The translations under genes were made by a program, and so were the position numbers. The notes under the pieces were generated by a model. That model was not told the DNA's origin and did no database searches. It saw nothing but the letters and a program-made list of their open reading frames with translations. From Gammaproteobacteria bacterium (lineage in GTDB: Bacteria; Pseudomonadota; Gammaproteobacteria; UBA4575), in the NCBI GenBank assembly GCA_965221955.1, contig CBDCTA010000005.1, positions 8,524 to 72,523 on the forward strand: a stretch of DNA of 64,000 nucleotides, given 5' to 3'. Positions 1 through 20,618 of this stretch are shown here, one piece after another; position 1 is the first letter of the stretch; every line of letters starts with the position of its first letter.

Positions 1-74
1 TTCCTATATATATCTATACAACTTATCTCAAAGGTCAGAAAGCAAACGAAATAGGCATGTAATTAAACTATTAT

Positions 75-104
75 AATGTCCGCTATTGGCCGAAAGCGGA
101 CATT
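75..104. repeat. Palindromic site AATGTCCGCT-N10-AGCGGACATT (copy 0)
   Basis: Perfect 10-bp inverted arms around ATTGGCCGAA; its reverse complement differs from the copy at 17236-17265 at only 2 nt. Confidence 0.9.
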
Positions 105-169
105 TCGAGTTCTCTTAACTTTAATCAGATACGTCATCCATGTTGTAAACTTTGTGAGTGCATCCATGC
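105..169 (-). repeat. Leader-like segment shared with 17171-17235
   Basis: Reverse complement of 75-169 aligns ungapped with 17171-17265 (72/95 identical, counted by hand), including GCATGGATGC and GATTAAAGTTA blocks. Confidence 0.8.
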
Positions 170-234
170 AGTCGTACAATTTCTGTGCTTCCGTCATACA
201 TGGAGGCCGAAGCAGACATTATTAATCAGTAAGA

Positions 235-2355: not shown

Positions 2356-2641
2356 TGAAGTATCTCGCTCGCGGCTGTAATCTTAGAGGAAAGCTGTGAA
2401 TGATTAAATTTTATACGTTATGTCACTGAGTGGGGGAGAGCTTTGTTATGCTTTTGACCACTTTAAAATCAAGTATATATTTGTAAGCAATTGATTGTAA
2501 GGACTATATTTAACTTGTTATGCTTTTACAGTTAAAGCGGCATGAAGAGCCGCCCAAATGCGATAAACTGAAGAAAGTAATGTCCATGACAATCGCTTAA
2601 GTTTGTCGTTATAAAGACCCTAATAACAATATAAAAATCCT

Positions 2642-4126: not shown

Positions 4127-4137
4127 GTATATCAAAG

Positions 4138-4518
4138 ATGGCTGAAAATTTATTACGCGAATGGGAAGTGTGTTTAAACAATGGTGATCTTGATGGGATC
4201 GTAGATTTATATACTAAGGATGCTGTTTTATGGGGTACTTTCTCAGATATTATTCGTGACAATCATGAATTAATTCGAGAATACTTTGAAAACTTATTTG
4301 AAAGAAAAAATCTTAAGGTAGAATTCGGAGCTTCTAACTTAAGAAGTTTTGGCCAGGCGGCTATATATTCTGGGGACTATAAATTCACCTATGAAGAGGA
4401 TGGAACTGTCGAATGCCCTTCAAGATTTTCATTTGTTTTTTATAAGAAAGCGGGTGAAGAATATAAAATAATTGACCATCATTCGTCTTTGATTCCTGAT
4501 ACAGGATCACGCGGATAA
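4138..4518 (+). CDS. NTF2/SnoaL-like (DUF4440) protein
   Basis: 126 aa, LYTKDAVLWGT...IREYF...RFSFVF...IIDHHSS pattern. Confidence 0.75.
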   Translation: MAENLLREWEVCLNNGDLDGIVDLYTKDAVLWGTFSDIIRDNHELIREYFENLFERKNLKVEFGASNLRSFGQAAIYSGDYKFTYEEDGTVECPSRFSFVFYKKAGEEYKIIDHHSSLIPDTGSRG

Positions 4519-5661: not shown

Positions 5662-5707
5662 CTCAATTTGAGAAAATCTTATTGTCTATTGTTAGATACG
5701 AGTGTTA

Positions 5708-7999
5708 TTAAATTGTTATGCGTCGATAAATGTCTGAGACTTTATAAGGCAATTTATCAACATGATCAATGACCGTAAAATTCACAGCACCATACATATG
5801 TTGCAAATAATCCATCGCTTCTTCGTCTATGGTGATACAAAAAGGGTGGATGCCTAAAAATTTAGCTTCTATCAATGCGCGTCTTGTATCTTCGATTCCA
5901 TATGGGCCACGATAACCATCTTGATCATCGGGTCTACCATCTGAAAGAGTAATTAAAAGTTTGGTGCGAGCCTCAACTTGATGCAATTTTTTTGTTAAAT
6001 GTCTAATTGCAGCACCCATGCGAGTATAGTCTTGTGGTTCGATTCCGCTAATGCGTGCTTTTACTTCTTTGTCATAGTTTTCATCAAACTCTTTAATTCT
6101 ATATAGTTCGCAACGTTGGTGGGTTACACCAGAAAAACCGTAGATTGCATATCGATCACCCAATATTTCAAGTGATTCACAAAGTAAAATCAAGGCTTCG
6201 CGCTCCATTTCATTAATCCAGCCGCTAGTGGAGCCGCTCATATCAATCATGAACATTACTGCAATGTTACGATCAACCTTGCGTGACTTAGTAAATAAAT
6301 TTTCTGAAGCCTCCATACCGATTTTTGTGTCAGTGAAGGCATCGATGACAGCATCCAGATCAATGTCGTCACCAAAAGGTTGACGTTTCATGCGCTTATC
6401 GTCTTCGCGCAAAGCTTCAAATGTTCTATGTAAATGTTTCAATAAGCCACGATGTTTATGTAAGGTGTTATTGACAAAATTATTATGAATAGGACGTACT
6501 TCAATTTCTTTTAAATGGCACCAGTCTTTGCGATATTTCTGCCTAGAGTGATCCCATTCGTCATAGAAGAAAACATTTTCAATGTTTTCTTCTATGACCT
6601 CTAAGTTCCCTTCAGACTCTTCTTCATTTTCAGCATAGTTATAATCAGTAACTAGATATTCGTCAGGAATACTGCCTTGGTCTTGTAATATCGAAGCTAA
6701 TAGTTGTTGTATATCTTCTGGTGGTTCAATGGCTTTTTCGTCGAACTGTAATTCGATTTTAAAACCATCCGGCATGCCATCATCTTCTATTTCTTTAATA
6801 GAGAAACCTTTTTCACCATTTTCAGCAATTGAGTCAACTGATATTTCTCCACTTTCATTTTTAGTGTTCTCACGACTCATTTTTTCAAGCTCTTGCTGCA
6901 AGAGTGTAAGCTTATCTTTTAAGGATTGTTTTTCTTTTATCTCTCTTGCTTCAATTGCTAATCGTGTTTCGTGTGGGTTTAATGAACCTTGATAAATTTT
7001 ATCTACAGGCATTTGTTCATCTTTATAAACGGCCTCGAGAAAAAACATGGTGTCTTGAACTGTTGCAGTGGGTTTGGATAGTTCCAAAAAGGCTCTTTGC
7101 CAATTTTTTGATAAATTATCTTGAATGTTATTCTCTTGTTGCTCGCTCAGAGCTTGCATTGCGCGTGCAATTCCAGGCAACTCGTTTTTAATGCGTGCGT
7201 CTAGGCGGATGGTTTCAAGTTTATGGAAGATAGACAAGGCGCGATCAGGATCTTTGAATCGTTTAATCAATGCTTCGACATTCATGCGCCAAGTGCCAAA
7301 CCAGGTTTGTGCCCACTGATGCACAGCCATGGCTTTGTATAAAGTAAAGTTATCTTCGCGTTTATTAAATAGTGAAGAAATTTCAGGAAGTCGTATTAAT
7401 TCAGTGTCGGTATAAAGCTCATCGTTTGCTTCAATTCCTAAATATCGCCCGCTTAATCCCATAACAAAACTTTCGAGTATGCGAGATACTTCATTTAAAG
7501 CAACGCTGCTAGGTGCAAGACTTAGCGATGTCACATAGCTTTCAACATTACGCATGGTATTGATGCAATCATCCATACCATTTTTATCATAGATAGTTAG
7601 TAAGTTAGCAATCCAATCATCCCAATTTTCTTCATCTACGAGCTTTAAACTTTGTGGGCCAAATTGACAGAAGCTGAAACCTAACTCAATACTGGTATTG
7701 CAAATTTTTTCAATAGTATTTAAAAAGCGATCTTGATCTACTTTGGCAGACCCTGCGAGTTCTTTAGCAGGTTCAAAAACACTGTTTTGAACGCTAAGCA
7801 CGGGTTCTACTAGTAGCTCCATACGTAGTTGTAGTTCGCGCACCCCCATTCCGCCATAAGATGCACTAGTCGTGAGTCCTCCTTGGCGTTCTAAGGATTT
7901 GATATGTCCACCATCCTTGCTATAAGCGGGGATTTCATATTTTTCATCACCGTTTTTGTTTTGGAGTTTTTTCCATTGTTTTTTCCAAAACATAATCAA
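5708..7999 (-). CDS. NorD/CbbO-like VWA-domain adaptor protein
   Basis: YDEWD...YRKDWC, GDDIDLDA, MIDAS DMSGST, YTRMGAAIRH, LSDGRPDD, YGIEDTRRA. Confidence 0.82.
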   Translation of the reverse strand: MIMFWKKQWKKLQNKNGDEKYEIPAYSKDGGHIKSLERQGGLTTSASYGGMGVRELQLRMELLVEPVLSVQNSVFEPAKELAGSAKVDQDRFLNTIEKICNTSIELGFSFCQFGPQSLKLVDEENWDDWIANLLTIYDKNGMDDCINTMRNVESYVTSLSLAPSSVALNEVSRILESFVMGLSGRYLGIEANDELYTDTELIRLPEISSLFNKREDNFTLYKAMAVHQWAQTWFGTWRMNVEALIKRFKDPDRALSIFHKLETIRLDARIKNELPGIARAMQALSEQQENNIQDNLSKNWQRAFLELSKPTATVQDTMFFLEAVYKDEQMPVDKIYQGSLNPHETRLAIEAREIKEKQSLKDKLTLLQQELEKMSRENTKNESGEISVDSIAENGEKGFSIKEIEDDGMPDGFKIELQFDEKAIEPPEDIQQLLASILQDQGSIPDEYLVTDYNYAENEEESEGNLEVIEENIENVFFYDEWDHSRQKYRKDWCHLKEIEVRPIHNNFVNNTLHKHRGLLKHLHRTFEALREDDKRMKRQPFGDDIDLDAVIDAFTDTKIGMEASENLFTKSRKVDRNIAVMFMIDMSGSTSGWINEMEREALILLCESLEILGDRYAIYGFSGVTHQRCELYRIKEFDENYDKEVKARISGIEPQDYTRMGAAIRHLTKKLHQVEARTKLLITLSDGRPDDQDGYRGPYGIEDTRRALIEAKFLGIHPFCITIDEEAMDYLQHMYGAVNFTVIDHVDKLPYKVSDIYRRITI

Positions 8000-8481
8000 C
8001 GATTACCTTTGCGTAGATTTTTTATTAAAAAGTCTTTCGCTTGATTGATTTTTGTAGCCAGATAATCGTTACCACCACGATCAGGATGAATTTTCTGAAT
8101 TAATTTTCGATGCGCTTCAATGATTTCTTCTTCAGTAGCATTTCTATCAACGCCCAATACTTTGTATGCTTCTTCGGTTGTCATTTTGGAATTTTGAGTG
8201 CTGTTATTTTCTGTACCTGTATGGTTTGGAGGGGTATCTGTGAATAGTCTTTGTAAAAAAGGCAAAAATTTCAAAAACCCCATAAATTTTTGAAATAAAG
8301 CTGCAAGCGTTGCGATTAAGGCAAACAACCAATGTAATCTTCCTGTGGCGGCCATTATGATCAAAACAATAGCAGCAAAGATAAGTACTGCTTGAATTTG
8401 TTTATTTTTCGGTTGCTTACGTAGCCAACGCAAGAATAATAAAATTCCAATAATTCCTGCGATGAGTAAGATTTGATTCAT
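7996..8481 (-). CDS. Membrane-anchored J-domain (DnaJ/Pam18-like) protein
   Basis: N-terminal TM helices; C-terminal EAYKVLG...HPDRGG...KINQAKD J-domain. Confidence 0.85.
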   Translation of the reverse strand: MNQILLIAGIIGILLFLRWLRKQPKNKQIQAVLIFAAIVLIIMAATGRLHWLFALIATLAALFQKFMGFLKFLPFLQRLFTDTPPNHTGTENNSTQNSKMTTEEAYKVLGVDRNATEEEIIEAHRKLIQKIHPDRGGNDYLATKINQAKDFLIKNLRKGNR

Positions 8482-8649
8482 AAGAATGGGTTAGTGTCTA
8501 AGGCTGGAAATTGTAGGGTTCCTTGCCAAAATTTAGTAGGTTGATTTTGGGCTATTGCTATATTTTGAAATAATTAAATTTTATTTTAACCCAAAAGTGC
8601 ATTTTGATCGTTTAAGCATGTAAATCTAGTGGAAAATAAAGGATTAAGC

Positions 8650-10110
8650 ATGAAACGTATCCAATCTTGGTCAATATTCGTAATAAGTTTACTCTTCATC
8701 TTAAGTTTAGGGCAGGTAGGGGCTTCTACACATGAAGGAGAGCATAGGAGCACCTTGGAAGATCAGTCAGAAGTCGCGGTTACTATTTATAACGATCAAT
8801 TAGCTTTAGTGAAAGACCTACGCACCATTCGTTTGGATAGTGGTTTTAATAAATTGGCGTTTCGTGAAGTGAGTGCCCAAATGCGACCAGAAACAGCATT
8901 ATTACGTAGCCTAAACTATCCTGATGGGTTTCGTCTAATCGAACAGAATTTTGATTTTGATCTGTTAACACCGCAAAAACTATTAGAAAAATATGTCGGT
9001 AAAAAAGTCAAAGTAGTGAAAACACATCCAACTACCGGGAAAGAAAAGTTGCTCGATGCAGTTGTGCTAAGTGTCAATAACGGGGTGGTATTGCGTATTG
9101 GCAATCGTATTGAAACAGGTGTTCCAGGGCGTATTGTATTTGATGAAGTACCAGGTAATTTGCGGGATCGACCAACCTTGGTTATGCAGCTTAACAGTGC
9201 GACTTCGAAAGCACAGCAGTTACAGCTTAGTTATTTAACCGGAGGTCTGTCTTGGAGGGCGGATTATGTAGCTGAGTTAGATGAGTCAGATGAATTTGTT
9301 GATTTAACGGGTTGGGTTACGTTAACCAATCAAAGTGGTGCAACCTATAAAAATGCCAAATTGCAACTTGTAGCCGGTGATGTAAATCGCGTACAAAATG
9401 GTTTTAAAGAGGCTAAGAGAAGATTTGAAATGTTAGCTGAAGAATCTATGGCAGCAGATGCGGATATGGTTGAAGAAGCTTTATTTGAATATCATTTGTA
9501 TACCCTACAACGACCCACTACGATAAAAGAAAATCAAACCAAACAGGTTTCATTATTAAGCGCAACAAAAATACCGGTTAAGAAGGAATTTTTATTAAAA
9601 GGTCAGAACTACTACTATCAAAGTTCGTATGGCTCTATTGGGCAAAAAATGAAAGTAGGTGTATTTGTAGAATTTAATAACGACAAGGAATCTAATTTAG
9701 GTATGCCATTACCGAAAGGAGTGGTGAGGGTTTATAAAAATGATCAATCAGGTAATGCACAGTTTGTAGGTGAAGACCGTATTGATCATACACCAAAAAA
9801 TGAAGAAGTAAGGTTAAAGCTTGGCGATGCCTTTGATGTAACCGCAGATAAAAAACAAACTCATTTCAAAAAAGCACATGCAATTGGTAAGTATAACTAT
9901 GCATACACCGCTAGTTTTCAAATCGATCTTAAAAATGCTAAAAATCAAGAGGTGGAAGTTGTTGTACAAGAGCCTATTCCAGGTGATTGGAAAATGAAAA
10001 AGCAAAGCCATGAGCATGAAAAAGTGGCTTCAGGTACTGCGGAGTGGAGAATCAAAGTACCAGCAGAAGGTAAAACCACTTTGACATATGAGGTATTGAT
10101 AAGATATTAG
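8650..10110 (+). CDS. DUF4139/DUF4140 secreted protein, copy 1
   Basis: Signal peptide, VAVTIYN..LALVKD, LSYLTGGLSWRADY, EYHLYTL; start taken at ATG 8650 (ORF from GTG 8629). Confidence 0.8.
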   Translation: MKRIQSWSIFVISLLFILSLGQVGASTHEGEHRSTLEDQSEVAVTIYNDQLALVKDLRTIRLDSGFNKLAFREVSAQMRPETALLRSLNYPDGFRLIEQNFDFDLLTPQKLLEKYVGKKVKVVKTHPTTGKEKLLDAVVLSVNNGVVLRIGNRIETGVPGRIVFDEVPGNLRDRPTLVMQLNSATSKAQQLQLSYLTGGLSWRADYVAELDESDEFVDLTGWVTLTNQSGATYKNAKLQLVAGDVNRVQNGFKEAKRRFEMLAEESMAADADMVEEALFEYHLYTLQRPTTIKENQTKQVSLLSATKIPVKKEFLLKGQNYYYQSSYGSIGQKMKVGVFVEFNNDKESNLGMPLPKGVVRVYKNDQSGNAQFVGEDRIDHTPKNEEVRLKLGDAFDVTADKKQTHFKKAHAIGKYNYAYTASFQIDLKNAKNQEVEVVVQEPIPGDWKMKKQSHEHEKVASGTAEWRIKVPAEGKTTLTYEVLIRY

Positions 10111-10129
10111 TCTTAATAAAGGATATAAC

Positions 10130-11572
10130 ATGAAAAAAATATCATTTTTGACTTCTACGTTACTATTTTTCTGTCTCACGCAAATCGCGGTTGCCGAAGA
10201 TGAAATACGAAGTACGCTTGAAGATCAACAAGAGGTCGCAGTTACCATCTATAACGAGCAATTAGCACTTGTTAAAGATTCAAGACGAATCAAGTTAGAT
10301 AATGGATTTAATCGCCTTGCATATCGTGAAGTGAGCGCACAAATGCGACCTGAAACCGCGTTACTTCGAAGTATCGACCATCCTGATGGGTTTCGTTTGA
10401 TTGAACAAAATTTTGACTTTGATTTATTAACCCCACAGAAACTTCTAGAAAAATATGTGGGTAAAAAAGTTAGAGTAGTTAGAACACATCCAACTACTGG
10501 TGAAGAAAGAACTGAAGAAGCCGAAGTCTTAAGTGTAAATAATGGTGTTGTGTTAAGGGTTGGAAATCGAGTTGAAACCGGTTATCCAGGTCGAATTATT
10601 TATGATGAGGTGCCTGAGAATTTGCGCGATCGTCCAACGCTGGTGATTTCGCTGGAAAGTGGTACCTCTAAAACTCAAGATTTACAGTTAAGTTATTTAA
10701 CCGGTGGCTTAGGTTGGAAAGCGGACTATGTTGCCGAGTTGGATGAATCAGATCAATTTGTCGATTTGACGGGTTGGGTTACGTTAACGAACCAAAGTGG
10801 TGCCACGTATAAGAATGCTAAATTGCAATTAGTTGCGGGTGATGTGAATCAAGTGCGTCAAGAAATGAATATTCTGCAGCGGAATATGTCTGGGAAAGTG
10901 GGTATGGCAAAAGCAGCAGCACCTGCAATGGTTGAAGAGGGGTTGTTTGAATATCACCTTTATACTTTGCAACGCCCAACTACTATTTCTCATAATCAAA
11001 CCAAGCAAGTGTCTTTACTAAGCGCAACCAAAATTCCTGTTAAAAAAGAATTTTTGCTACAAGGTCAAAATTATTACTACCGCAGCTCGTATGGGCAAAT
11101 TGGCCAAAAATTGAAAGTGGGCGTGTTTGTAGAGTTTGAAAATAAAGAAGAGTCTAATCTTGGTATGCCTTTGCCTAAAGGTGTAGTGCGAGTTTATAAA
11201 AATGATCAATCCGGTAATGCACAATTTGTTGGCGAAGATCGTATTGATCATACGCCTAAAAACGAAGAAATTAAGCTAAAACTTGGCGATGCGTTTGATG
11301 TGACGGCAGATAAAAAGCAAACCAACTTTAAAAAAGCGACCGCTATAGGAAAATATAGCCAAGCCTACACCGCAAGCTTTGAAGTAATATTAAAAAATGC
11401 TAAAGATGAAGCAGTGGAAGTCGTAGTTCGTGAACCCATCCCGGGTGACTGGAAAATGAAGCAAGAAAGCCATCAGCACAAAAAAGTAGCAGCTGGTACT
11501 GCGGAATGGAGAATAAAAGTACCTGCTGAAGGCAAAACTACATTAAGCTATGATGTGTTGGTTCGTTACTAA
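10130..11572 (+). CDS. DUF4139/DUF4140 secreted protein, copy 2 (tandem paralog)
   Basis: Long stretches identical in protein to copy 1; SD AAGGA upstream. Confidence 0.82.
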   Translation: MKKISFLTSTLLFFCLTQIAVAEDEIRSTLEDQQEVAVTIYNEQLALVKDSRRIKLDNGFNRLAYREVSAQMRPETALLRSIDHPDGFRLIEQNFDFDLLTPQKLLEKYVGKKVRVVRTHPTTGEERTEEAEVLSVNNGVVLRVGNRVETGYPGRIIYDEVPENLRDRPTLVISLESGTSKTQDLQLSYLTGGLGWKADYVAELDESDQFVDLTGWVTLTNQSGATYKNAKLQLVAGDVNQVRQEMNILQRNMSGKVGMAKAAAPAMVEEGLFEYHLYTLQRPTTISHNQTKQVSLLSATKIPVKKEFLLQGQNYYYRSSYGQIGQKLKVGVFVEFENKEESNLGMPLPKGVVRVYKNDQSGNAQFVGEDRIDHTPKNEEIKLKLGDAFDVTADKKQTNFKKATAIGKYSQAYTASFEVILKNAKDEAVEVVVREPIPGDWKMKQESHQHKKVAAGTAEWRIKVPAEGKTTLSYDVLVRY

Positions 11573-11591
11573 GTTGAAGCAATAATAAATT

Positions 11592-12494
11592 TTGTATAAC
11601 GCAAAGCCTCTAGACTGGCTGGGTATGGTGGCGCTTGTCATCATGTTTGGTAGTGCCTTCATGTTTACAAAGATCTCTGTTCAAGAGTATCCACCTGTGA
11701 TTGTAACGGCGGGTAGAATCATCATTGCTGCTGGTTTATTGTTGTTAATTTCTGTAATTAGAAGAGATTCTTTTACATTTATTCGGCGACATTGGGGACT
11801 ATTAATTGCGCTAGCATTTTTTGGAAGTTGTTTGCCTTTTTATTTAATTAGTTGGGGGCAGCAAACAGTAGACAGCAGTATTGCTGGGATTCTGATGGCG
11901 GTGATGCCATTAACGACTATTGTGTTAGCACATTTTTTTGTTGTTGATGAAAAACTAACCACAAATAAAGTCATTGGTTTTTTTCTAGGGTTTGTAGGTA
12001 TTCTCGTATTATTCGGGCCCGGAGCATTGGCTAATTTCGAAAGTGACGTGAATAGATTGCTAGCAATGCTCGCGATATTAGCAGGAGCGATAAGTTATGC
12101 TGTGAATACAATTATTGCTAAACGCTTGCCCAAAGAAAGTTTTGTGGCGATGTCGGCAGCAGTTTTAATAATTGCTAGTCTGCTTATGTTACCTTCAATA
12201 TTTATATCCAATCTAGATTGGACATTTTCAATTAGAAGCATTGAGTTCGCTTCTTTGGTTTTATTGGGTGTTTTCCCTACCGCAGTGGCTACCATCATTT
12301 ATTTTGCAGTAATCGCAAGAGTGGGGCCTTCATTTTTAGCACAAATAAATTATTTAATTCCTGTTTGGGCTGTATTAGTGGGGGTTGTATTCTTAAATGA
12401 AAAGATCGGTTTCAATGCAATTATCGCTTTATTTATTATTTTACTTGGAATTGCACTTGCACAACGTAAGAAATTATCGTTCGCGAGATTTTAA
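11592..12494 (+). CDS. DMT/EamA family transporter
   Basis: About 10 TM helices in two repeats, SWGQQTVDSSIAGILMA. Confidence 0.85.
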   Translation: MYNAKPLDWLGMVALVIMFGSAFMFTKISVQEYPPVIVTAGRIIIAAGLLLLISVIRRDSFTFIRRHWGLLIALAFFGSCLPFYLISWGQQTVDSSIAGILMAVMPLTTIVLAHFFVVDEKLTTNKVIGFFLGFVGILVLFGPGALANFESDVNRLLAMLAILAGAISYAVNTIIAKRLPKESFVAMSAAVLIIASLLMLPSIFISNLDWTFSIRSIEFASLVLLGVFPTAVATIIYFAVIARVGPSFLAQINYLIPVWAVLVGVVFLNEKIGFNAIIALFIILLGIALAQRKKLSFARF

Positions 12495-12518
12495 GAACAA
12501 CAAATTAAGGACTTTAGA

Positions 12519-12884
12519 ATGCAAAAGAATGTGCTTGGTGGTGATTTGCAGAGCTGTTGTGAGGAATTGTTAACAGGCTACTTTCGAAACGGGCGTTGTG
12601 ATACTGATGAACATGATATTGGCATGCATACTGTGTGTGCAAATGTAACGAAAGAATTTTTAGAATTTTCTAAGATAAAAGGAAATGACTTAACTACACC
12701 TTATCCAGAAGCAGATTTCCCAGGTTTGAAACCTGGAGATAAATGGTGTTTGTGCGTGCAGCGCTGGATAGAAGCGCTAGAGGAAAATAAAGCGCCTAAT
12801 ATTTATTTACAGGCAACACATAGTTCAGTGTTGGAATATGTTGAACTAGAAGTGCTTGCAAAATATGCGCTAGATAAAAATTAA
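12519..12884 (+). CDS. DUF2237 family protein
   Basis: NVLGGDLQSC, TGYFRNGRC, HTVCA, GNDLTTP, PGLKPGDKWCLC. Confidence 0.88.
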   Translation: MQKNVLGGDLQSCCEELLTGYFRNGRCDTDEHDIGMHTVCANVTKEFLEFSKIKGNDLTTPYPEADFPGLKPGDKWCLCVQRWIEALEENKAPNIYLQATHSSVLEYVELEVLAKYALDKN

Positions 12885-12913
12885 CATTTGTTCTAGTTTC
12901 AAGGAGGGTTAAT

Positions 12914-13420
12914 TTATTCTCTAGAGATGAATGCTTCAAGCGCCTCAGGTTTTACTGGGCCTGGATTATGACCTACTAAATGACCGTCTGGGTTAAACAT
13001 CAAAAATGTAGGTGTACCACGTAAAGGTTCTTCTGTCGCAGATTGGTAATTAAAAGCGACTACAGTAATTTCCCCAATTAAATTATCAAATGTCATTGGC
13101 ATCTCATCGATGTGCTGAGTAATCTTATCAAGCTCGGAATAACCGTCCAAAGAAACGCCAATTACTTTTGCTTTAGTATCTTTATGTTTGTCATGAAACT
13201 CTGAAATAACAGGGTATTCGCGTTGGCAAATTCCACAATCTGTTGTCCATAACATTACTAGGGTCCATTTATCTTTTTCAAAGTGCTGAGATAGAGTAGT
13301 AAACTTGCCTTCAAGCGTTCTGACTTCTGTCCAGTCAGACGCCATAGCGCCATAACTAAACAGCAACAGAATAAGTAGGCTGGCGATACATATGGATTGA
13401 AATAAATATGTGCGTTTCAT
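12914..13420 (-). CDS. TlpA/redoxin family periplasmic thioredoxin-fold protein
   Basis: Signal peptide, WTTDCGIC CxxC, GTPTF cis-Pro motif; start at ATG 13420 preferred. Confidence 0.8.
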   Translation of the reverse strand: MKRTYLFQSICIASLLILLLFSYGAMASDWTEVRTLEGKFTTLSQHFEKDKWTLVMLWTTDCGICQREYPVISEFHDKHKDTKAKVIGVSLDGYSELDKITQHIDEMPMTFDNLIGEITVVAFNYQSATEEPLRGTPTFLMFNPDGHLVGHNPGPVKPEALEAFISRE

Positions 13421-13550
13421 AATGTTGGGGTTGAGTATAATCTTAGTTAACACAACTATCAGTGTGCTGATTTTAGCTTAGAGTTAGTGGATAATTCGAT
13501 AGTTCCGATGTGCTGCACTAATATACATAACAAATAACGAGCGAACAAAT

Positions 13551-14429
13551 ATGTCAAACAAAGATCTTCCATATAGCAGTATTCAGAGCGTGCTAGACCA
13601 GGTAGGTGCTTTGGCATTTCCAGGTATTTACGACACGCTTTCTGCAAAAATTGCCGAGCAAGTAGGGTTTCCCATGGGGTTCATTTCAGGATATTCACTT
13701 GCGGCGGCCACCATAGGGGAACCTGATTTTGGACTACTTACCCAAACCGAAGTAGTGGAACGAGCACGTGCTATTTGCAGTAGTGTTTCTATGCCTATTA
13801 TTGTAGATGCAGATACCGGATATGGTAATCCATTAAATGTTCATCGTACGGTTACACAGTTAATTGATGCAGGTGCAAAAGGATGCTTTTTAGAAGATCA
13901 AGTTTGGCCAAAAAAATGTGGCCATATGCGTAATAAAAAAGTCATCGAACGTGAGGAATATCTATATAAAATTCAAGCAGCCGTTGATGCAAGAGGCAAT
14001 AGTGATTTCTTTATTGTTGCACGTACTGATGCTGAAGCGGTTTTAGGTTTAGATGAAGCAATTGCAAGAGTAAAAGCAGCACGTAAAATTGGAGCTAATG
14101 CGAGCTTTGTTGAAGCACCTGGTTCATTAGAACAACTGAAAAGAATAGGACAAGAATCGCCGCATCCTAATGTTGCTAACATGATTGAGGGGGGAGCTAC
14201 TCCTGTATTACCTAAGAGCAAGTTAGAAGAATTAGGCTTCCACTTAATTCTTTACCCCCTCACAGGTTTGTTTACAGCAGGTAAGGCAATGCGAGATATC
14301 TATTCAAAATTACAAAACGATGGTACAACGCTTGGTATGGAAGAAGCCTTGTTAAACTTTGAAGAGTTTAATGATTTGATTGGAGTTGAAGAGAAGTATA
14401 AGCAGTCTGAAAAATATGGTGTTAAGTGA
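13551..14429 (+). CDS. Isocitrate lyase/PEP mutase family enzyme (methylisocitrate lyase/oxaloacetate decarboxylase-like)
   Basis: DADTGYG, LEDQVWPKKCGH, IVARTDA, NMIEGG. Confidence 0.88.
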   Translation: MSNKDLPYSSIQSVLDQVGALAFPGIYDTLSAKIAEQVGFPMGFISGYSLAAATIGEPDFGLLTQTEVVERARAICSSVSMPIIVDADTGYGNPLNVHRTVTQLIDAGAKGCFLEDQVWPKKCGHMRNKKVIEREEYLYKIQAAVDARGNSDFFIVARTDAEAVLGLDEAIARVKAARKIGANASFVEAPGSLEQLKRIGQESPHPNVANMIEGGATPVLPKSKLEELGFHLILYPLTGLFTAGKAMRDIYSKLQNDGTTLGMEEALLNFEEFNDLIGVEEKYKQSEKYGVK

Positions 14430-14554
14430 AGGAAGCCTTGATTTAACTTGGTTGCTTCGTTAAAAGATACCTCGAAATCGTTCATGTATATTTAAATACA
14501 TCATACTCTTCTCGATATTTTTTGCCTCGTCCCAAGCTAAATTAATACTTCTTT
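14429..14554 (+). mobile_element. MITE-like intergenic repeat, family M copy A
   Basis: Imperfect TIRs AAGGAAGCCTTGATTTA / TAAATTAATACTTCTTT; core similar to 50539-50674 and to the reverse complement of 62104-62236. Confidence 0.7.
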
Positions 14555-16064
14555 AGGTTTCTATTATTTTTATTAGGTTTGGACTTAGTAAATAAGCTAA
14601 AGTGGTAAGCATTAACAAACATAATAAGTTTAACCAAAAACCTGATTTTCTCATTTCAGGCATAGAAATGTGTCCTGATCCAAAAACAATTGCGTTAGGT
14701 GGTGTTGCAATTGGCAGCATAAACGCACAGCTCGCTGCAATAGCTGCAGGAATGATAAGTATATAAGGGTGTATGTTTAATGCAGGGGCTATGGCGGCAA
14801 GCACGGGTACTAACGTTGCAGTGGTTGCAGTATTCGACGTAAGTTCAGTAAGAAATACAACTGCACTCACAATAATCAAAAGGATAAGTAGTGGCGGCAA
14901 AATTGAAAGAATGGTTGCTTGTGCACCAATAAATTCAGTTACACCATTTGCTTTTACTGCTGCAGCTAAACTTAAACCACCGCCTAACAAGATTAATATC
15001 CCCCAAGGTAGTTCTTTTAAGTTCTCCCATTGTAAAATAAACGACTGGTTTTTTGATTTACTAGGGATTAGAAATAATGTAATCGCGGCAAAGATTGCAA
15101 TACTGGAGTCCGTCAGGCCAGCTAGTGGTTTGTAATGGTTTCCATTTAATGAGAATTCTATGTTTTGTAAAAATGTGCGGCTTAGCCATAAAGCAATGGT
15201 GAAAGAGAAAACAAAACAAACTGCTTTTTCTTCATAGCTCATTTTTCCTAACGCATGTTTTTGCTCACGTAAAGATTGTGATGAGTGGCCAAGTTTGACT
15301 TTATCTACTTTATAAATGAGCTTAGCTAATAACCACCAAGCTACAGGTAATAATATGCATACAACGGGGACTCCAATTTTAGTCCATTGCAGGAAACTGA
15401 TGTCTTGTTGAAAAGGAGAGTCAATGGCGTCTTTAATAAAAGATACTACAAATAGATTTGGTGCTGTTCCAATAATTGTTGCAATGCCACCAATGTTTGC
15501 TGCATAAGCAATGCTTAACATAATGCAGGTTGCAAAAGCTTGTTGATTAAATTCCTTTCCAGCTAACAATACTATGACACTTAAAGCAATCGGTAGCATC
15601 ATTGCAGTGGTGGCTGTATTCGAGATAAACGCACTCAAAAATGCAGTAGCTAACATAAAGCCACCTACAATTCTGGAAGGAGAGTTGCCGATTTTTGTAA
15701 GAATTCCCAAAGCTATACGTTTATCTAAGCTCCAACGTTGAATCGCGATGGCAATAATAAAGCCGCCTAAAAATAAAAATATAATGTGAGATGCATAAGG
15801 CGCTGTTGCTGCTTTAATAGATGCCACCTCAAATAAAGGAAACAATGCGATGGGCATGAGTGCAGTAACAGTGATATGTGTAGCTTCTGTTAACCACCAA
15901 ATTGCCATCCACACGAGTAATGCAATGGTTGCTTTAGCAGGGTGTGCCAGGAGAGTTTGTTCACCATTACTTGCGATATAGTGGTCAGGTAACCACCAAT
16001 AGACCACTAGTGCCAATATGGGGCCAGAAATAAGCCAAATACCCTTGAATTGAGGTGCTTTCAT
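14553..16064 (-). CDS. SLC13/DASS sodium:dicarboxylate/sulfate symporter
   Basis: SNTATTAMMLPI, IGTAPN, FLTELTSNTAT, AFMLPIATPPNAIVF. Confidence 0.92.
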   Translation of the reverse strand: MKAPQFKGIWLISGPILALVVYWWLPDHYIASNGEQTLLAHPAKATIALLVWMAIWWLTEATHITVTALMPIALFPLFEVASIKAATAPYASHIIFLFLGGFIIAIAIQRWSLDKRIALGILTKIGNSPSRIVGGFMLATAFLSAFISNTATTAMMLPIALSVIVLLAGKEFNQQAFATCIMLSIAYAANIGGIATIIGTAPNLFVVSFIKDAIDSPFQQDISFLQWTKIGVPVVCILLPVAWWLLAKLIYKVDKVKLGHSSQSLREQKHALGKMSYEEKAVCFVFSFTIALWLSRTFLQNIEFSLNGNHYKPLAGLTDSSIAIFAAITLFLIPSKSKNQSFILQWENLKELPWGILILLGGGLSLAAAVKANGVTEFIGAQATILSILPPLLILLIIVSAVVFLTELTSNTATTATLVPVLAAIAPALNIHPYILIIPAAIAASCAFMLPIATPPNAIVFGSGHISMPEMRKSGFWLNLLCLLMLTTLAYLLSPNLIKIIET

Positions 16065-16145
16065 ATCTCTTCAGTCTAATAGTTTGATATACCTTTAAAA
16101 AATTTCATTCGCTAGAATATCAATAAGATATTGGCTTTATTAACG

Positions 16146-17168
16146 ATGCAAGCAAAAACACAAATTCAAGATACTTTATCACGACCTATTCGTGATCTAA
16201 GAATTTCGGTTACGGATCGTTGTAATTTTCGTTGCACCTATTGTATGCCGAAAGAAGTGTTCAATTCAGAATATGAGTTTTTACGCAGAGATGATTTGCT
16301 TAGTTTCGAAGAAATCGCTCGAATATCAAAAATTTTCGCAAATATAGGCGTCAAAAAAATTCGTTTAACTGGGGGGGAGCCCTTATTACGAAAGAATCTT
16401 CCAGTTTTAATTAAGCAACTATCAAATATTGATGGAATTGAAGATATCAGTTTAACCACTAATGGTGTTCTTCTAACTACTGAAGTTGCGCAGCAATTAA
16501 AAGATGCAGGCTTGAAACGCATTACCATTAGTTTAGATGCGCTGGATGACGAAACATTTAAAGCGATAAGCGATGTAAATTTTAATGTAGAAAAAGTATT
16601 AGCCTCTGTAGAACATGCTCAGAACGCAGAGCTTGACCCCATTAAAATTAACATGGTGGTGAAAAAAGGTATTAATGAACATTCTATTTTGCCAATGGCG
16701 AAACATTATCACGGCAGTGGCGTTATTTTACGTTTCATTGAATTCATGGATGTGGGTAGCACCAATCAATGGCAAATGGATGATGTGTTTTCTGCTAAAG
16801 AAATTGCAAATGTAATTCATCAAGAGTTGCCTATTGAACCTGCAGAAGCTAATTATCACGGTGAAGTGGCAAAACGCTGGCAATATAAAGATGGTGGTGG
16901 AGAAATTGGAATTATTTCTTCTGTGACGCAACCATTTTGCCAAAGCTGCACACGCGCAAGGCTTTCTGCAGAAGGCAAACTCTATACTTGTTTATTTGCT
17001 ACACAAGGTAAAGATTTACGCCATCTTGTTCGCGAACAAGCAGACGATAAACATATTCAAGATGTCATTACTGCAATTTGGAAAAAACGCAATGATCGTT
17101 ACTCAGAACTACGAACTTCTGAAACCGTCTTGCTCCCAAAAGTAGAAATGTCTTATATTGGTGGGTAA
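16146..17168 (+). CDS. moaA: GTP 3',8-cyclase (radical SAM)
   Basis: LRISVTDRCNFRCTYCMP, TGGEPLLR, FCQSCTRARL, C-terminal MSYIGG. Confidence 0.96.
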   Translation: MQAKTQIQDTLSRPIRDLRISVTDRCNFRCTYCMPKEVFNSEYEFLRRDDLLSFEEIARISKIFANIGVKKIRLTGGEPLLRKNLPVLIKQLSNIDGIEDISLTTNGVLLTTEVAQQLKDAGLKRITISLDALDDETFKAISDVNFNVEKVLASVEHAQNAELDPIKINMVVKKGINEHSILPMAKHYHGSGVILRFIEFMDVGSTNQWQMDDVFSAKEIANVIHQELPIEPAEANYHGEVAKRWQYKDGGGEIGIISSVTQPFCQSCTRARLSAEGKLYTCLFATQGKDLRHLVREQADDKHIQDVITAIWKKRNDRYSELRTSETVLLPKVEMSYIGG

Positions 17169-17170
17169 GC

Positions 17171-17233
17171 GCATGGATGCGCGCATATGATGCCCATCAG
17201 GGATGATGTAACAGATTAAAGTTAGGTATTTTC
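17171..17233 (+). repeat. Leader-like segment shared with 105-169
   Basis: Collinear similarity to the segment behind prc; same 65-nt distance from GCATGGATGC to the palindrome. Confidence 0.8.
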
Positions 17234-17267
17234 AAAATGTCCGCTTTCGGCCATAAGCGGACATTTT
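17234..17267. repeat. Palindromic site copy 1 (perfect 13-8-13)
   Basis: AAAATGTCCGCTT-TCGGCCAT-AAGCGGACATTTT. Confidence 0.92.
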
Positions 17268-17305
17268 AGGTTACTAGTATTTATAATTAGTTATCTACTT
17301 AGAAA

Positions 17306-17593
17306 CTATAAAATATGTCGACGAATTAAAATCCAAGCAAGCGGCAGTAACGCAATCAAAGCCGATATTATTAATGAAGTTCTAAACGTGCCTTCTCGCG
17401 CTTCAATAATACACTGATATACAGCTATTCCTGCAATTACAAAGCTGAGCAACACCGGTATGAGAAACAAAGGTGCTGTAGACCATGCACCCCATCCATC
17501 ATAATTGCGAATATATAATTCAATTCCAACAAGAACTGAAACAGGAATCAAGCAAAGAAATTCTAGTATATGCTTTCGGCCAATAGCGGTCAT
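17306..17593 (-). CDS. Hypothetical small membrane protein (cassette cargo 1)
   Basis: 95 aa with three hydrophobic helices; its ATG lies inside palindrome copy 2. Confidence 0.6.
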   Translation of the reverse strand: MTAIGRKHILEFLCLIPVSVLVGIELYIRNYDGWGAWSTAPLFLIPVLLSFVIAGIAVYQCIIEAREGTFRTSLIISALIALLPLAWILIRRHIL

Positions 17594-17594
17594 T
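17565..17594. repeat. Palindromic site copy 2 (left arm degenerate)
   Basis: AGTATATGCT-TTCGGCCAAT-AGCGGTCATT; spacer identical to the reverse complement of copy 0. Confidence 0.8.
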
Positions 17595-18231
17595 GATTAA
17601 CTGGTTTCCAACGATACCAAGAAATTACTTTCCATTTATCTGCAAACAATAAATTCTGACTTATTCTCTTTGTCTCACTTTCCATGATCAACCATCCATT
17701 TTGGCTTTTACTAAACTTTCGAGTTTCTGATGAACTATGATTGGCTAATACAATAGTATCAACGTTAAATCGTTTCTTTAAAATTAAGTTCCCATTCTCA
17801 CAATGGAAGTCACCATTTTTAATACTTAATGTCTGAGTTCCTTTAGGGGAATTACGTTCCCACATTTTAATACTTAGCTGATCGTGGTTTGGCTGTTGCA
17901 GCTCAGCTACCGTACCAGACAAAACCACTTCACATCTGCTCTGCCATGTCCATCTTTTGCTATGACCTGTCCTATAATAATCTTCAAATTCAGGCATTTT
18001 TTTCGATAAAAGTTGAAAATCTAAACGATAGCAGGAAAGGATTTGAGCTTTTGGGATTTCAGCATCCACATCATAAAATCCTGAAACATTGGGGCATTGA
18101 TTATTTTTATTTTCGTTTTCTAATTTTGACCACTCTATAGGATACTCAACGATTACATCCTCCATATACATGGAACATGAGGTCAGTAAAATAATATGCA
18201 TATAGATGATTGAAATTGAAATCACACGCAT
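17590..18231 (-). CDS. Hypothetical lipoprotein (cassette cargo 2)
   Basis: 213 aa, lipobox LTSC, several Cys; its stop TGA lies inside palindrome copy 2. Confidence 0.65.
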   Translation of the reverse strand: MRVISISIIYMHIILLTSCSMYMEDVIVEYPIEWSKLENENKNNQCPNVSGFYDVDAEIPKAQILSCYRLDFQLLSKKMPEFEDYYRTGHSKRWTWQSRCEVVLSGTVAELQQPNHDQLSIKMWERNSPKGTQTLSIKNGDFHCENGNLILKKRFNVDTIVLANHSSSETRKFSKSQNGWLIMESETKRISQNLLFADKWKVISWYRWKPVNQ

Positions 18232-18259
18232 GTTTCAAGAGCCAATCTTTAGTGTGCTA

Positions 18260-18289
18260 AATGTCCGCTTTGGGTCGTTAAAGGTCATT
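18260..18289. repeat. Palindromic site copy 3 (right arm degenerate)
   Basis: AATGTCCGCT-TTGGGTCGTT-AAAGGTCATT, abutting the moaB stop codon. Confidence 0.78.
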
Positions 18290-18813
18290 TATTTTTCTTT
18301 AAGCCGTGGCATCAACTCCACCAAGTTACATGGCCGACTTCTATAATCGAGCTGGTGTGAAATCAATTTATCCCAGGCTTCTGCACAAGCGCCTGCAGAG
18401 CCCGGTAAACAAAATATATACGTTGCATTGGCAACGCCTGCAAAAGCACGGGATTGCAGGGTGGAAGTTTTAATCGTTTCATAAGACAATACGCGAAACA
18501 TTTCACCAAAACCGGTAATTTCTTTATCCAGCAAAGGGCGAATGGCTTCAGGGGTACCGTCTCGTCCGGTTACACCTGTTCCACCTGTAGTCAGTACGAC
18601 ATCAGACTTTTCCTCAGCAATCCATTTGGCTACTACGGCGCGAATTTTGTAGATATCATCCGGTACAATAATTTTTTCACGTAAGTCATGACCAGCTGTG
18701 GTTAGACGATCGCAAAGTAATTTACCGGACTTGTCGTCTGCTTCTGTGCGGGTATCTGATATTGTTAGAACCGCGACATTTAAAGGCTTAAAAGACCGTT
18801 CGTTGTTACTCAT
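18289..18813 (-). CDS. moaB: Molybdenum cofactor biosynthesis protein B
   Basis: AVLTISDTR, TTGGTGVTGRDGTPEA, GFGEMFR, RPCNLVELMPRL. Confidence 0.93.
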   Translation of the reverse strand: MSNNERSFKPLNVAVLTISDTRTEADDKSGKLLCDRLTTAGHDLREKIIVPDDIYKIRAVVAKWIAEEKSDVVLTTGGTGVTGRDGTPEAIRPLLDKEITGFGEMFRVLSYETIKTSTLQSRAFAGVANATYIFCLPGSAGACAEAWDKLISHQLDYRSRPCNLVELMPRLKEK

Positions 18814-18882
18814 ATATAATAGTAGTTAAATTAAATATTCTATTTACTTAATGTAGCGTACTTAGCATTCAATGTCATAGAA

Positions 18883-19320
18883 ATGAAAGTCGAAATTAGA
18901 GAATCGCAATATGATCCATGGTATGAAGCTTGTGTCCATGAAGAAGAATCTCTACGTAAAGGAGAGCACGGCGCTAAATCTATTTTTATTGGTTCGATGC
19001 GAGATATGAATGAGGGAGATGCTGTTACTTCAATGGTGTTAGAGCATTATCCAGAGATGACGCAAAAGCACTTAGAGGCCATTGCGACAGAAGCATTAAA
19101 AAAATTTGATATTTTAGATGTACTTATTCTTCATCGAGTAGGCGAAGTATTTCCTAGTGATCCGATTGTATGTGTAGTGGTGTGGTCACTACATCGTGGA
19201 GCTGCATATGATGCAAACCGCTTTATTATGGAGGATTTAAAGTCTAAAGCACCGTTTTGGAAAAAAGAGACATTAGCAAGTGAGGCTAACCGTTGGGTGG
19301 AGAAAAACACACCTGGATAA
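18883..19320 (+). CDS. moaE: Molybdopterin synthase catalytic subunit
   Basis: LEHYPEMT, HRVGEV, HRGAAY, LKSKAPFWKKE. Confidence 0.92.
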   Translation: MKVEIRESQYDPWYEACVHEEESLRKGEHGAKSIFIGSMRDMNEGDAVTSMVLEHYPEMTQKHLEAIATEALKKFDILDVLILHRVGEVFPSDPIVCVVVWSLHRGAAYDANRFIMEDLKSKAPFWKKETLASEANRWVEKNTPG

Positions 19321-19334
19321 ATTAGAGCTTATTC

Positions 19335-20618
19335 CTAGATAATTGCTTCGAATGGGAGTACTTGTACCTCATCATCGACTTCTACGCCACCTGACTCCAT
19401 GGGTAAGATGATAAAACAGTTCGCATCTGACATTGAACGTAAAATTCCTGAACCTTGTGCTCCAGTTTTAACTACTTCATAAGAAGTTGGATTGTTATTT
19501 GTTTTTGAAAGGATTCCTCGTTGGTACTCTATACGTCCTGGCCGTTTACGCAACTTAGTTTTGCAAGCAGCATTTAGCATTAAAGGTTCTTTATATTTAA
19601 GACCCATTAACTTTTTAAGTGCAGGTTGCACAAACATATAAAAGGTCACCATCACTGAAACAGGATTTCCAGGTAGACCGAAAAACCAAGCATTTTTAAT
19701 TTTTCCAAAGGCAAGAGGTCGGCCAGGTTTCATTGCGACTTTCCAGAAATTAACTTCGCCTATTTTCTCTAACGTTTCTTTAACAAAATCTGCTTCGCCA
19801 ACGGATACACCACCCGAAGTAATAATCACATTTGCTTTATCCGCAGCATTTAAAAAAGCTTGTTCCACTGCTTCGCGCTTATCTTCAATGACTCCTAAAT
19901 CAATAATTTCTACTCCTAGCTTTGAAAGCATGCCATGTAAGGTATAACGATTACTGTCATAAATTTGCCCAACTTCTAATTCACTTCCTACAGGTCTAAG
20001 TTCATCACCGGTTGAGAAAAAAGCAATACAAATTTTTTTATTTACATTTACTTCATTAATACCAACAGATGCTATCAACCCTAAGTCAGCAGGTGTAAGC
20101 TGTTTGCCTTTGCAAAGTACTAGTCCGCCTATTGGAATGTCTTCGCCTGCTAAGCGAACGTTTTGACCTATTTTATTCGAATGGTCAATTGTGATGTCAT
20201 TATCATTTACTTCAACATGTTCTTGCATGATCACCGTATCAGTATTGGTAGGCATTGCGGCGCCCGTCATAATGCGTACACATTCGCCTTTATTGACTTC
20301 ACCAGTGTAGGGTCGTCCTGCCCATGATGTTCCAATATTTTTAAGTGTAACAGTATCTTGAGTAGGAATGTCTGCGCCTATAATTGCATAACCATCCATG
20401 GCGGAGTTCGTGTGGCCAGGCACATTAATATTTGAAGTTATATCTTCTGCTAGCGTGCGGCCTAGCGATTCTCGAATAGGTGATTTCTCTGTCTCAGATA
20501 TTGAAGAGATCGTGTTTAAAATTCGTTGTAAGGCTTGATTAGCATCGAGTGAAGCTGGATCAAAATCGTCCATACAACTAGGATCATGTGTTACAGATTC
20601 TGTATTTTTTGATGGCAT
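19335..20618 (-). CDS. moeA: Molybdopterin molybdotransferase
   Basis: NSAMDGYA, RIMTGA, STGDEL, IYDSNR, SGGVSVGEAD, MKPGRP, GLPGNPVS. Confidence 0.95.
   Translation of the reverse strand: MPSKNTESVTHDPSCMDDFDPASLDANQALQRILNTISSISETEKSPIRESLGRTLAEDITSNINVPGHTNSAMDGYAIIGADIPTQDTVTLKNIGTSWAGRPYTGEVNKGECVRIMTGAAMPTNTDTVIMQEHVEVNDNDITIDHSNKIGQNVRLAGEDIPIGGLVLCKGKQLTPADLGLIASVGINEVNVNKKICIAFFSTGDELRPVGSELEVGQIYDSNRYTLHGMLSKLGVEIIDLGVIEDKREAVEQAFLNAADKANVIITSGGVSVGEADFVKETLEKIGEVNFWKVAMKPGRPLAFGKIKNAWFFGLPGNPVSVMVTFYMFVQPALKKLMGLKYKEPLMLNAACKTKLRKRPGRIEYQRGILSKTNNNPTSYEVVKTGAQGSGILRSMSDANCFIILPMESGGVEVDDEVQVLPFEAII

Follow-up and report, generated by a model that had tools for sequence, protein, structure and literature searches.

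The stretch of DNA analysed in this study (the window, 64,000 nt, positions 8524-72523 of contig C5) belongs to a gammaproteobacterial assembly, designated G000, of 2.69 Mb with 38.6% GC, a completeness of 96.6%, and a contamination of 4.3%. Between the convergent genes moaA and moaB, the window contains three short hairpin sites, two single genes, and an end element designated X. A sequence-only reading of the window had placed three co-oriented sites here, the first of them a perfect palindrome with 13-nt arms and an 8-nt spacer, and both the coordinates and the arms were verified. Site 1 at 17235-17266 has perfect 13-nt arms (17234-17246 and 17255-17267) flanking an 8-nt loop, and co-oriented copies of it, 72% and 78% identical, are present at 17564-17595 and 18259-18290. 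From start to start, the three sites are 329 and 695 nt apart. The arm pattern, with at most three mismatches, was matched three times in the window, compared with 0.03 matches expected by chance. A fourth copy near the beginning of the window is in reverse orientation relative to the moa sites (Table 1).

The same reading had assigned to each unit of about 329 or 695 nt one same-strand gene without a recognisable family. This description held, as each interval between the sites consists of one minus-strand open reading frame (ORF), encoding 95 and 213 amino acids (aa), respectively, and a Pfam scan of both proteins returned 0 families each. Among 5.8 billion proteins, the 213-aa protein matched itself alone, and six relatives of the 95-aa protein were found in the protein search. 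All six relatives open with MT(A/S/T), which is what the first hairpin arm encodes; this arm-encoded start was read as DNA in the window copy (P0002, ATGACCGC) alone, and the relatives were compared by protein only. In hairpin 2, the letters ATGA serve both genes, with TGA ending the 213-aa ORF and ATG opening the 95-aa ORF.

The folding of the three sites as DNA was then compared with that of shuffled sequences. Site 1 folds with -13.1 kcal/mol (z -7.6), and X and hairpin 1 together reach -23.7 kcal/mol (z -5.8). Site 2 gave -0.7 kcal/mol, which was equalled or bettered by 167 of 200 shuffles, and site 3 gave -2.3 kcal/mol (z -1.7; 16/200 shuffles equal or better). Sites 2 and 3 are decayed copies, recognised by their sequence rather than by self-complementarity. 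The moaA-moaB gap consists of an X-hairpin pad at the moaA stop codon and two single-gene modules running in the direction of moaB. The 3' part of moaA shows 70-82% DNA identity among the congeners compared.

Table 1. Features of the moa locus and of the left edge of the window (positions in the window)
Feature	Position	Strand	Remark
moaA, radical-SAM molybdenum-cofactor gene (named as in the sequence-only reading)	16131..17168	+	ORF; conserved left flank
X element, structured end module with two stem-loops (NGGA loops), then CAGATTAAAGT	17166..17233	+	begins at the moaA stop codon
Hairpin 1, B type, intact	17237..17264 (extended palindrome 17234-17267)	+	
Cassette gene 1, 95-aa small membrane protein	17306..17593	-	ORF, ATG within hairpin 2
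Hairpin 2, decayed B type	17566..17593	+	
Cassette gene 2, 213-aa orphan, N-terminus lipoprotein-like by eye	17590..18231	-	ORF
Hairpin 3, decayed A type	18261..18288	+	adjoins the moaB stop codon
moaB, convergent with moaA	18289..18813	-	ORF; right flank conserved in congeners
Terminal B hairpin (76-103) and X element (105-185)	76..185	-	closes the upstream array G000:C5:676-8626

An Rfam scan of window positions 1-20000 found nothing relevant. A perfect-looking palindrome at 6560-6598 gave a weak two-strand match to a microRNA (miRNA) model (31 bits against a gathering threshold of 92), and it is probably a chance hairpin or terminator.

Oriented Hairpins in the Genome

A search of the genome with the arms ATGTCCGC-N12-GCGGACAT, allowing at most one mismatch, found 62 sites, whereas the reversed control gave 0. 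With two oriented 28-nt models, we found 174 sites in G000, 89 with the type A loop (TTTGGGTCGTTA) and 85 with the type B loop (TTTCGGCCAATA); these models allowed substitutions only, and length variants would go unscored. A neighbour within 3 kb was present for 158 of the 174 sites, compared with 32% expected. The sites form 30 clusters of at least two, 26 of which have a single orientation, and the order B then A was observed in 11 of the 13 two-site clusters. In the long arrays (C5:676-8626 and C23:10.8-23.3 kb), type A, a 45-55-nt spacer, and type B alternate, with 73-83 nt from start to start. The C5 array contains 24 hairpins and about 12 single-gene cassettes, which are co-oriented and opposite to the moa array, and it ends 17 kb before the moa sites.

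Conservation covers the loops and the arms alike. The arms are asymmetric, and most A copies have mismatched stems. Since loops and asymmetric arms are kept and A stems are mostly mismatched, pairing alone is not what is kept. Arm polymorphisms common to A and B fit type A being an inverted type B, but the loops are nearly palindromic, so that the relative orientation of the two types can be read either way. The flanks of the hairpins are A-rich in G000 (TAAA-ATGTCC, where the hairpin begins with ATGTCC) and varied in alphaproteobacteria. Downstream of the hairpins in the direction of the genes, the sequence is A-rich and not T-rich. G000 also contains long tandem repeats at C22:1-1926 and C29:662144-663592, whose periods are about 339 and 294 bp.

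Single Genes between the Hairpins

The sequence-only reading had proposed a genome scan for intervals holding single ORFs, and this was confirmed in the inter-hairpin units. In 79 out of the 90 co-oriented units, the largest ORF points away from the A hairpin and toward the B hairpin (p 8e-14), and a unit usually consists of a single ORF occupying about 90% of the gap. Such units are found stacked in arrays and also standing alone. The ORF typically starts 10-45 nt past the upstream hairpin. Of 86 units, 49 have their stop codon inside the downstream hairpin or at most 15 nt from it. Among the 86, 12 use as their stop the TGA in the ATGAC of the hairpin itself, and 8 have a stop that abuts the hairpin.

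Twenty array products, ten larger and ten smaller, were scanned against Pfam. All ten larger products matched Pfam families, including an Na/H exchanger, an SbtA-type transporter, M48 and M23 peptidases, Hsp20, HAD and alpha/beta hydrolases, a TPR protein, and a cyclase. Two of the ten smaller products were above the Pfam cut-off (Rieske and macro domain), two were sub-threshold, and six had no match. The cassettes carry accessory functions alongside proteins without a Pfam family, and recombinase or transposase families were not matched by any of these 20 products.

Read in the direction of the genes, the spacer has a conserved TTGGAA box 17 nt before AAAAT. A generic promoter scan of the C5 array gave 24 promoter-like sites, compared with 34.3 expected, and one spacer (L037 3688-3716, TTGGAA-17-TAAAAT) was found among the promoter-like sites listed. 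Since the scan flags one spacer only, we infer a promoter role of the spacer only weakly.

Module Boundaries in Copies, Strains, and Congeners

A copy of cassette 1 with 97% identity is present at C11:2700-3057, inside an A-spacer-B array. The homology in this pair opens at the first hairpin base and closes one base past the next hairpin, and the sequences outside are unrelated. The C11 copy carries the identical decayed hairpin. Further pairs in different contexts, C5:749 versus C26:69642 (86%) and C5:3077 versus C17:16509 (77%), also have their homology bounded by hairpins.

The assembly mixes at least two close strains, and the contig pairs C14/C23, C10/C29, C11/C26, C12/C13, and C1/C25 are alternatives of each other, several of them 97-99% identical. 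Because of this mixing, some cassette 'paralogues' may lie in different strains; the argument from context is unaffected. In C14 and C23, the flanks are 99.3% identical on the xerD side and 99.1% on the far side, and the arrays measure 4.2 kb and 12.5 kb, respectively. These two arrays have one cassette in common, and C14 carries an extra 1034-bp two-hairpin cassette where C23 has a single hairpin. In C10 and C29, the flanks are 98.7% and 99.7% identical, and the arrays are wholly different between the terminal hairpins. The breakpoints in both variant pairs lie at the terminal hairpins or at most about 12 nt from them.

The moaA-moaB gap was then compared over the congeners, where it ranges from 35 bp in G013, without any repeat, to 11.6 kb in G010. 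It consists of X and one hairpin without a gene in G011, of two cassettes in G000, of three other cassettes in reverse orientation in G008, and of X adjoining moaB and a 91-aa gene in G002. Other ORFs occupy the gap in G001, G003, G004, G009, G012, and G014. When 13 gap ORFs were compared, those of G009 and G012 were the sole related pair. G011 has a homologue of cassette 1 in another X-bounded array, and its moa gap is geneless. A second hotspot, the xerD-side locus, varies from 0.18 to 12.5 kb. The sequence-only reading had named the same two genes fixed between moaA and moaB across relatives as the outcome that would speak against it, and the gap was instead empty or differently filled. These comparisons show that modules are gained, lost, and copied as hairpin-to-hairpin units, with the hairpins as the breakpoints of cassette-sized differences.

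The locus was also compared with Logan assembled contigs, using one run with a locus share of 0.91 and three with small shares. Apparent contig joints at hairpin coordinates were rejected, as their sides of 21-29 letters led to other repeat copies and represented neither deletions nor circles.

The X Element at the Array Ends

X is 73 nt long and consists of GTGAG, stem-loop 1, CGAATATGAG, stem-loop 2, and CAGATTAAAGT. It lies ahead of terminal B hairpins, and behind terminal A hairpins it is present in inverted form. Using nhmmer, we found 61 X matches in G000, mostly as convergent pairs framing 0 to about 25 cassettes. Empty X pairs are present at C22:45725-45933 (209 bp) and C29:575431-575619 (189 bp). 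The match at the moa locus covers C5:25676-25758, which is 17153-17235 of the window (E 9e-19), and X occupies the 3' untranslated region of moaA there.

Both stems of X covary over 40 copies (GCGCA/TGCGC, GCATA/TATGC, and GCCCA/TGGGC; CAAC/GTTG, CATC/GATG, and CGTC/GACG), and the loops keep NGGA. Because the stems covary while the loops keep NGGA, X is a structured element. We take its GGA loops (A/U-N-GGA) to resemble CsrA/RsmA binding hairpins. The TAG of X is the stop codon of moaA in G011 and G014 and that of moaB in G002. TA precedes GTGAG in 6 of the 11 left X ends read, and the right ends are without TA.

Distribution and Replication Orientation

The distribution of the hairpins was surveyed in 41 genomes including G000. 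They were found in 13 of 14 congeners and, within the same family, in four of ten further genera with at least 12 copies and in two more with two copies each, as well as in one other family. A 22-nt core was present at at least 119 loci in species genomes, compared with about 9 expected by chance from a base-count estimate. These loci include many metagenome-assembled genomes (MAGs) of Xanthobacteraceae and other alphaproteobacteria, as well as Xanthomonadales, Woeseiaceae, and Oxalobacteraceae. Five unrelated alpha- and betaproteobacterial genomes contain 38-360 copies, with 0 in the controls. The sequence-only reading had treated the sites as those of an integron-like locus. They do form a real repeat; the repeat is not private to such a locus, but represents a family resembling the repetitive extragenic palindromes (REPs) and bacterial interspersed mosaic elements (BIMEs), amplified in several classes of Proteobacteria.

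At four alpha- and betaproteobacterial MAG loci (L079, L083, L096, and L141), the hairpins form triplets that combine three loop types at a spacing of 45 nt. Read in frame, triplet hairpins would give recurrent short peptides at predicted protein ends. Plasmids of Klebsiella and Citrobacter also carry copies, located at the joints between modules. In viral contigs, the hairpin core was found at 36 loci, of which 17 are one site with identical flanks; we take these 17 to be a single prophage lineage. A terminase was the only other protein common to five viral loci. A 126-nt hairpin-spacer-hairpin query had no match in E. coli genomes.

Orientation along the chromosome was examined in the complete genome G019, in which 85 of 88 sites were classified by eye and three ambiguous sites were dropped. 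From dnaA (0.585 Mb) to the dif-like site (1.912 Mb), 40 of 48 sites point one way, and on the other arm 30 of 37 point the opposite way, so that 70 of the 85 follow the replichore. Since hairpin orientation follows the replichore, the cassette genes of G019 lie mostly on the leading strand.

Recombinase and Transposase Families

The best match to IntI (TIGR02249) in G000 was XerD beside dsbC, with 83 bits against a cut-off of 265, and IntI was absent from all 13 hairpin-bearing congeners. Within the genus, IntI was found in G013 alone (387 bits), the sole congener without hairpins; this may be a complementary distribution, seen in a single genome. The attC sites beside the IntI of G015 are genuine and ordinary and have no hairpin match. 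The host's dif-like site at C4:59807 is canonical, with 0 mismatches to the dif motif, and has nothing in common with the hairpin arms. The claim that the sites are neither attC nor dif was borne out by these comparisons with a real attC array and the host dif.

The tyrosine recombinase complement of G000 consists of XerC, XerD, and a phage-type integrase, and there is a single large serine recombinase. No tyrosine recombinase other than XerC and XerD was found in every genome checked. XerD was considered as the driver and rejected: its gene lies beside the largest G000 array but is equally conserved in the hairpin-less G013. No array lies beside xerD in G001 or G019.

Y1_Tnp was present in 2 of the 18 relatives with at least 12 hairpins (G001 and G015) and in one of five hairpin-rich alpha- and betaproteobacterial genomes. 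It was not found in three complete genomes, namely G010 (57 hairpins), G014 (18), and G019 (88). Six Y1_Tnp loci, including that of G001 and not that of G015, were examined, and none contained hairpins. In G000, two-copy repeats of 1.2 and 1.4 kb were considered as insertion sequences (ISs) and proved to be a desaturase and a binding protein. The sequence-only reading had pointed to a tyrosine recombinase or HUH/RAYT gene co-occurring with the sites, and none of the genes found tracks them.

Comparison with Known Systems

The hairpins resemble REP/BIME and REPIN-RAYT repeats (E. coli REP, BIME-1/RIP, and Pseudomonas REPINs, which are REP doublets) in that they are high-copy short extragenic palindromes just after genes, occurring as single, paired, or triplet hairpins with short conserved linkers. 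An AATCAA-type box in the hairpin linker recalls what is presumably the IHF site of BIME-1. The A-spacer-B pairs of 73-83 nt, which are common here, may be set beside the inverted doublets of REPINs, although the relative orientation of A and B is ambiguous. In contrast to these repeats, no RAYT was found in G000 or most carriers, and the GTAG tetranucleotide is missing from the 5' foot of the hairpin. REPs are usually lineage-specific, whereas an identical 28-mer is kept across classes here. The present hairpins also differ in bounding single accessory genes in long, strain-variable arrays.

A second group for comparison is that of the CGTC-tagged REPs, including the Neisseria dRS3 clusters. 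The passages of PMC3733652 on this group describe an 8-9-bp stem starting with AT, a 4-5-nt loop, and a CCA tail, with TGTC (also CCTC) as variants of the tag. They present these REPs as having no dedicated transposase, as mostly alphaproteobacterial, and as clustered in some genera (Di Nocera et al. 2013, PMC3733652). Compared by these descriptions only, the hairpin is alike in its 8-bp stem starting with AT and in having no transposase. It has TGTC at stem positions 2-5, inside the stem only, and is set apart by its 12-13-nt loop and by having neither an external tag nor a CCA tail as described there (PMC3733652).

Integron cassettes, including clusters of attC sites lacking integron-integrases (CALINs), are similar in that compact, co-oriented, mostly single unknown genes each end in an imperfect palindrome. 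Content turnover between strains and the presence of the same cassette at different places are further likenesses. The differences are that IntI and the RYYYAAC/GTTRRRY boxes are missing, the arms reading directly as ATGTCCGC/GCGGACAT, and that about 30 dispersed arrays have X at both ends, whereas integrons have attI beside intI.

Acinetobacter pdif modules are discrete gene modules without a recombinase of their own, moved by XerCD at 28-bp sites of 11-6-11 structure. The hairpins, too, span 28 bp, can be read as 11-6-11, and border discrete gene modules, and no recombinase is carried on the element. They differ from pdif in that their arms are unlike the host dif, the flanking sites are co-oriented rather than alternating, and the modules are chromosomal and arrayed.

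Fold-back miniature inverted-repeat transposable elements (MITEs) of the enterobacterial repetitive intergenic consensus (ERIC) and Correia types and transposase-less mobile insertion cassettes are a further group for comparison. Pairs of X resemble them as small elements with terminal inverted repeats, many copies, and an empty length of about 190-210 nt, and in being able to carry passenger genes with no transposase. No target-site duplication is evident for the X pairs and no matching transposase was found; they differ in that cargo is added modularly at an internal hairpin. The palindrome-associated transposable elements (PATEs) derived from IS200/IS605, which have hairpins at their left and right ends and rely on a Y1 TnpA acting in trans, differ in that neither Y1_Tnp nor TnpB was found in G000. 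Br-REP1 and Br-REP2 of Bradyrhizobium were considered as the same repeat and rejected, as their sequences are different. A search of literature text found no description of the hairpin repeat; supplementary files and figures, which might list the family, lie outside such a search.

Discussion

We interpret the hairpins as a transposase-less REP/BIME-like repeat acting as a cassette joint, in a layout that is integron-like without being an integron, and we propose an enzyme that acts in trans. The probability of this interpretation is about 0.5. Its descriptive part, in which the 28-nt hairpins are module joints, is very probably correct. Whether the joining is done by a trans-acting sequence-specific protein is a closer question, which we answer with a tentative yes at slightly short of even odds. 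Such a protein is favoured because the letters of the loop are kept across classes, as are the arms, which are unequal and often mismatched, and because the repeat has been independently amplified in each lineage. The arrays are not integrons because they are without IntI and without attC boxes.

According to this proposal, the hairpins join three kinds of module, namely single genes with almost no untranslated flank, the 45-55-nt spacer, and the 73-nt X. Breakage and joining would take place inside the hairpin. The joining protein would act in trans and might be a housekeeping enzyme or a member of an unrecognised family, outside the families tested. Inverted pairs of X form small fold-back elements, and these act as landing pads. 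The sequence-only reading had suggested integron-like gene capture by a recombinase in trans; the cassette behaviour was supported by the ends of homology and the variant arrays, whereas no recombinase was found.

Several observations weigh against this interpretation. Within the hairpin, the point of crossover could not be located. The recombinase and transposase families tested yielded no candidate enzyme; Y1/RAYT, IS110, Rpn, TnpB, rve, and DDE_Tnp_1 were not found in G000, nor was any multicopy IS. The 431-aa phage-type integrase does not track the hairpins, since it was found in G000 and G014 only, with distant matches in three other genomes; within the genus, the one further match was a weak one in G004 (34% identity). 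The 544-aa serine recombinase does not track them either, its resolvase family being present in 3 of 14 congeners. Neither an excision product nor a circle was seen in the assembled Logan contigs at the locus. In alphaproteobacteria, the hairpins occur as doublets or triplets 45 nt apart between ordinary genes, in a BIME-like manner. The moa array may be a fossil, because two of its three sites are decayed. Finally, the replichore bias in G019 fits an enzyme-free replication-linked process or selection on gene orientation just as well.

In the main rival explanation, the same joints could arise with no dedicated protein, through replication-linked template switching at stalled forks or through short-homology or RecA recombination. 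The 28-nt hairpins and the hairpin-spacer-hairpin units of about 100 nt would then be enzyme-free recombination substrates, perhaps after DNA uptake. We consider both forms of this explanation possible but doubtful. They agree with the finding that no recombinase or transposase family tracks the hairpins, and with the bias of both chromosome arms among the classified sites of G019. Every junction retains the 28-nt hairpin, length variants being unscored, as homology-guided switching would give. CGTC-type REPs are also described without a transposase in the passages on them in PMC3733652. However, structure alone leaves unexplained why loop letters and unequal arms are constant from 38%-GC gamma- to 57%-GC alphaproteobacteria, and how the repeat was amplified to hundreds of copies per lineage. 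That most A stems are mismatched is contrary to selection for folding. A length of 28 bp is at the lower limit for RecA recombination, which is a further point against this explanation.

The hairpins could also be ordinary REP or terminator hairpins that pile up after the genes of accessory islands, with strain differences arising by horizontal transfer and recombination in the flanks. Hairpin 1 is followed by TTTT just after moaA, between convergent genes, as a terminator would be. The alphaproteobacterial copies lie between genes of all kinds, as BIMEs do, and the gap genes of G001, G003, G004, G009, and G012 have no detectable hairpin. These points are outweighed by the boundaries of the modules, and we regard the explanation as improbable. 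The homology of the 97% pair ends at most 1 nt from the hairpin edges, and the breakpoints of the variant pairs fall at or close to the terminal hairpins, beside flanks that are 99% identical. The B-gene-A grammar and the orientation bias of 79/90 would be unexpected for terminators, and so would the A-rich sequence after the hairpins.

A true integron array from which the integrase has been lost (CALIN), or a REP or PATE moved by RAYT or the TnpA of IS200/IS605, would account for single co-oriented ORFs of variable content between repeats and for the Y1_Tnp of G001 and G015, but is highly improbable given that IntI is absent from G000 and the 13 hairpin-bearing congeners and present in the hairpin-less G013, that the attC sites of G015 are unlike the hairpins, and that Y1_Tnp is missing from G000, G010, G014, and G019, occurs in 1/5 alpha- and betaproteobacterial genomes, and has no hairpin at any of the six loci.

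The interpretation of the hairpins as cassette joints, served by an enzyme in trans, can be extended to an integrase-free cassette system. Hairpin joints and X pads would capture, stack, and swap single genes at about 30 chromosomal sites by means of an unrecognised or co-opted enzyme, and such a system would work across alpha-, beta-, and gammaproteobacteria and their plasmids as an alternative to integrons. We offer this wider view speculatively and think it rather unlikely to hold in full. What is new here is a known kind of repeat, REP/BIME-like, in the role of a cassette joint and conserved across classes of Proteobacteria.

Integrons are the textbook route for stacking and shuffling single genes in bacteria, and an integron-like layout recurs here at about 30 places in one small genome with a different site. 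If a specific enzyme exists, it would be a new recombination tool. It would also answer how transposase-less REP families such as the CGTC type multiply, a question left open in the passages of PMC3733652 on those repeats. If no enzyme is needed, short hairpins would by themselves suffice to arrange accessory genes as exchangeable modules. In both cases, the hairpins provide a ready marker for variable genes in uncultured bacteria.

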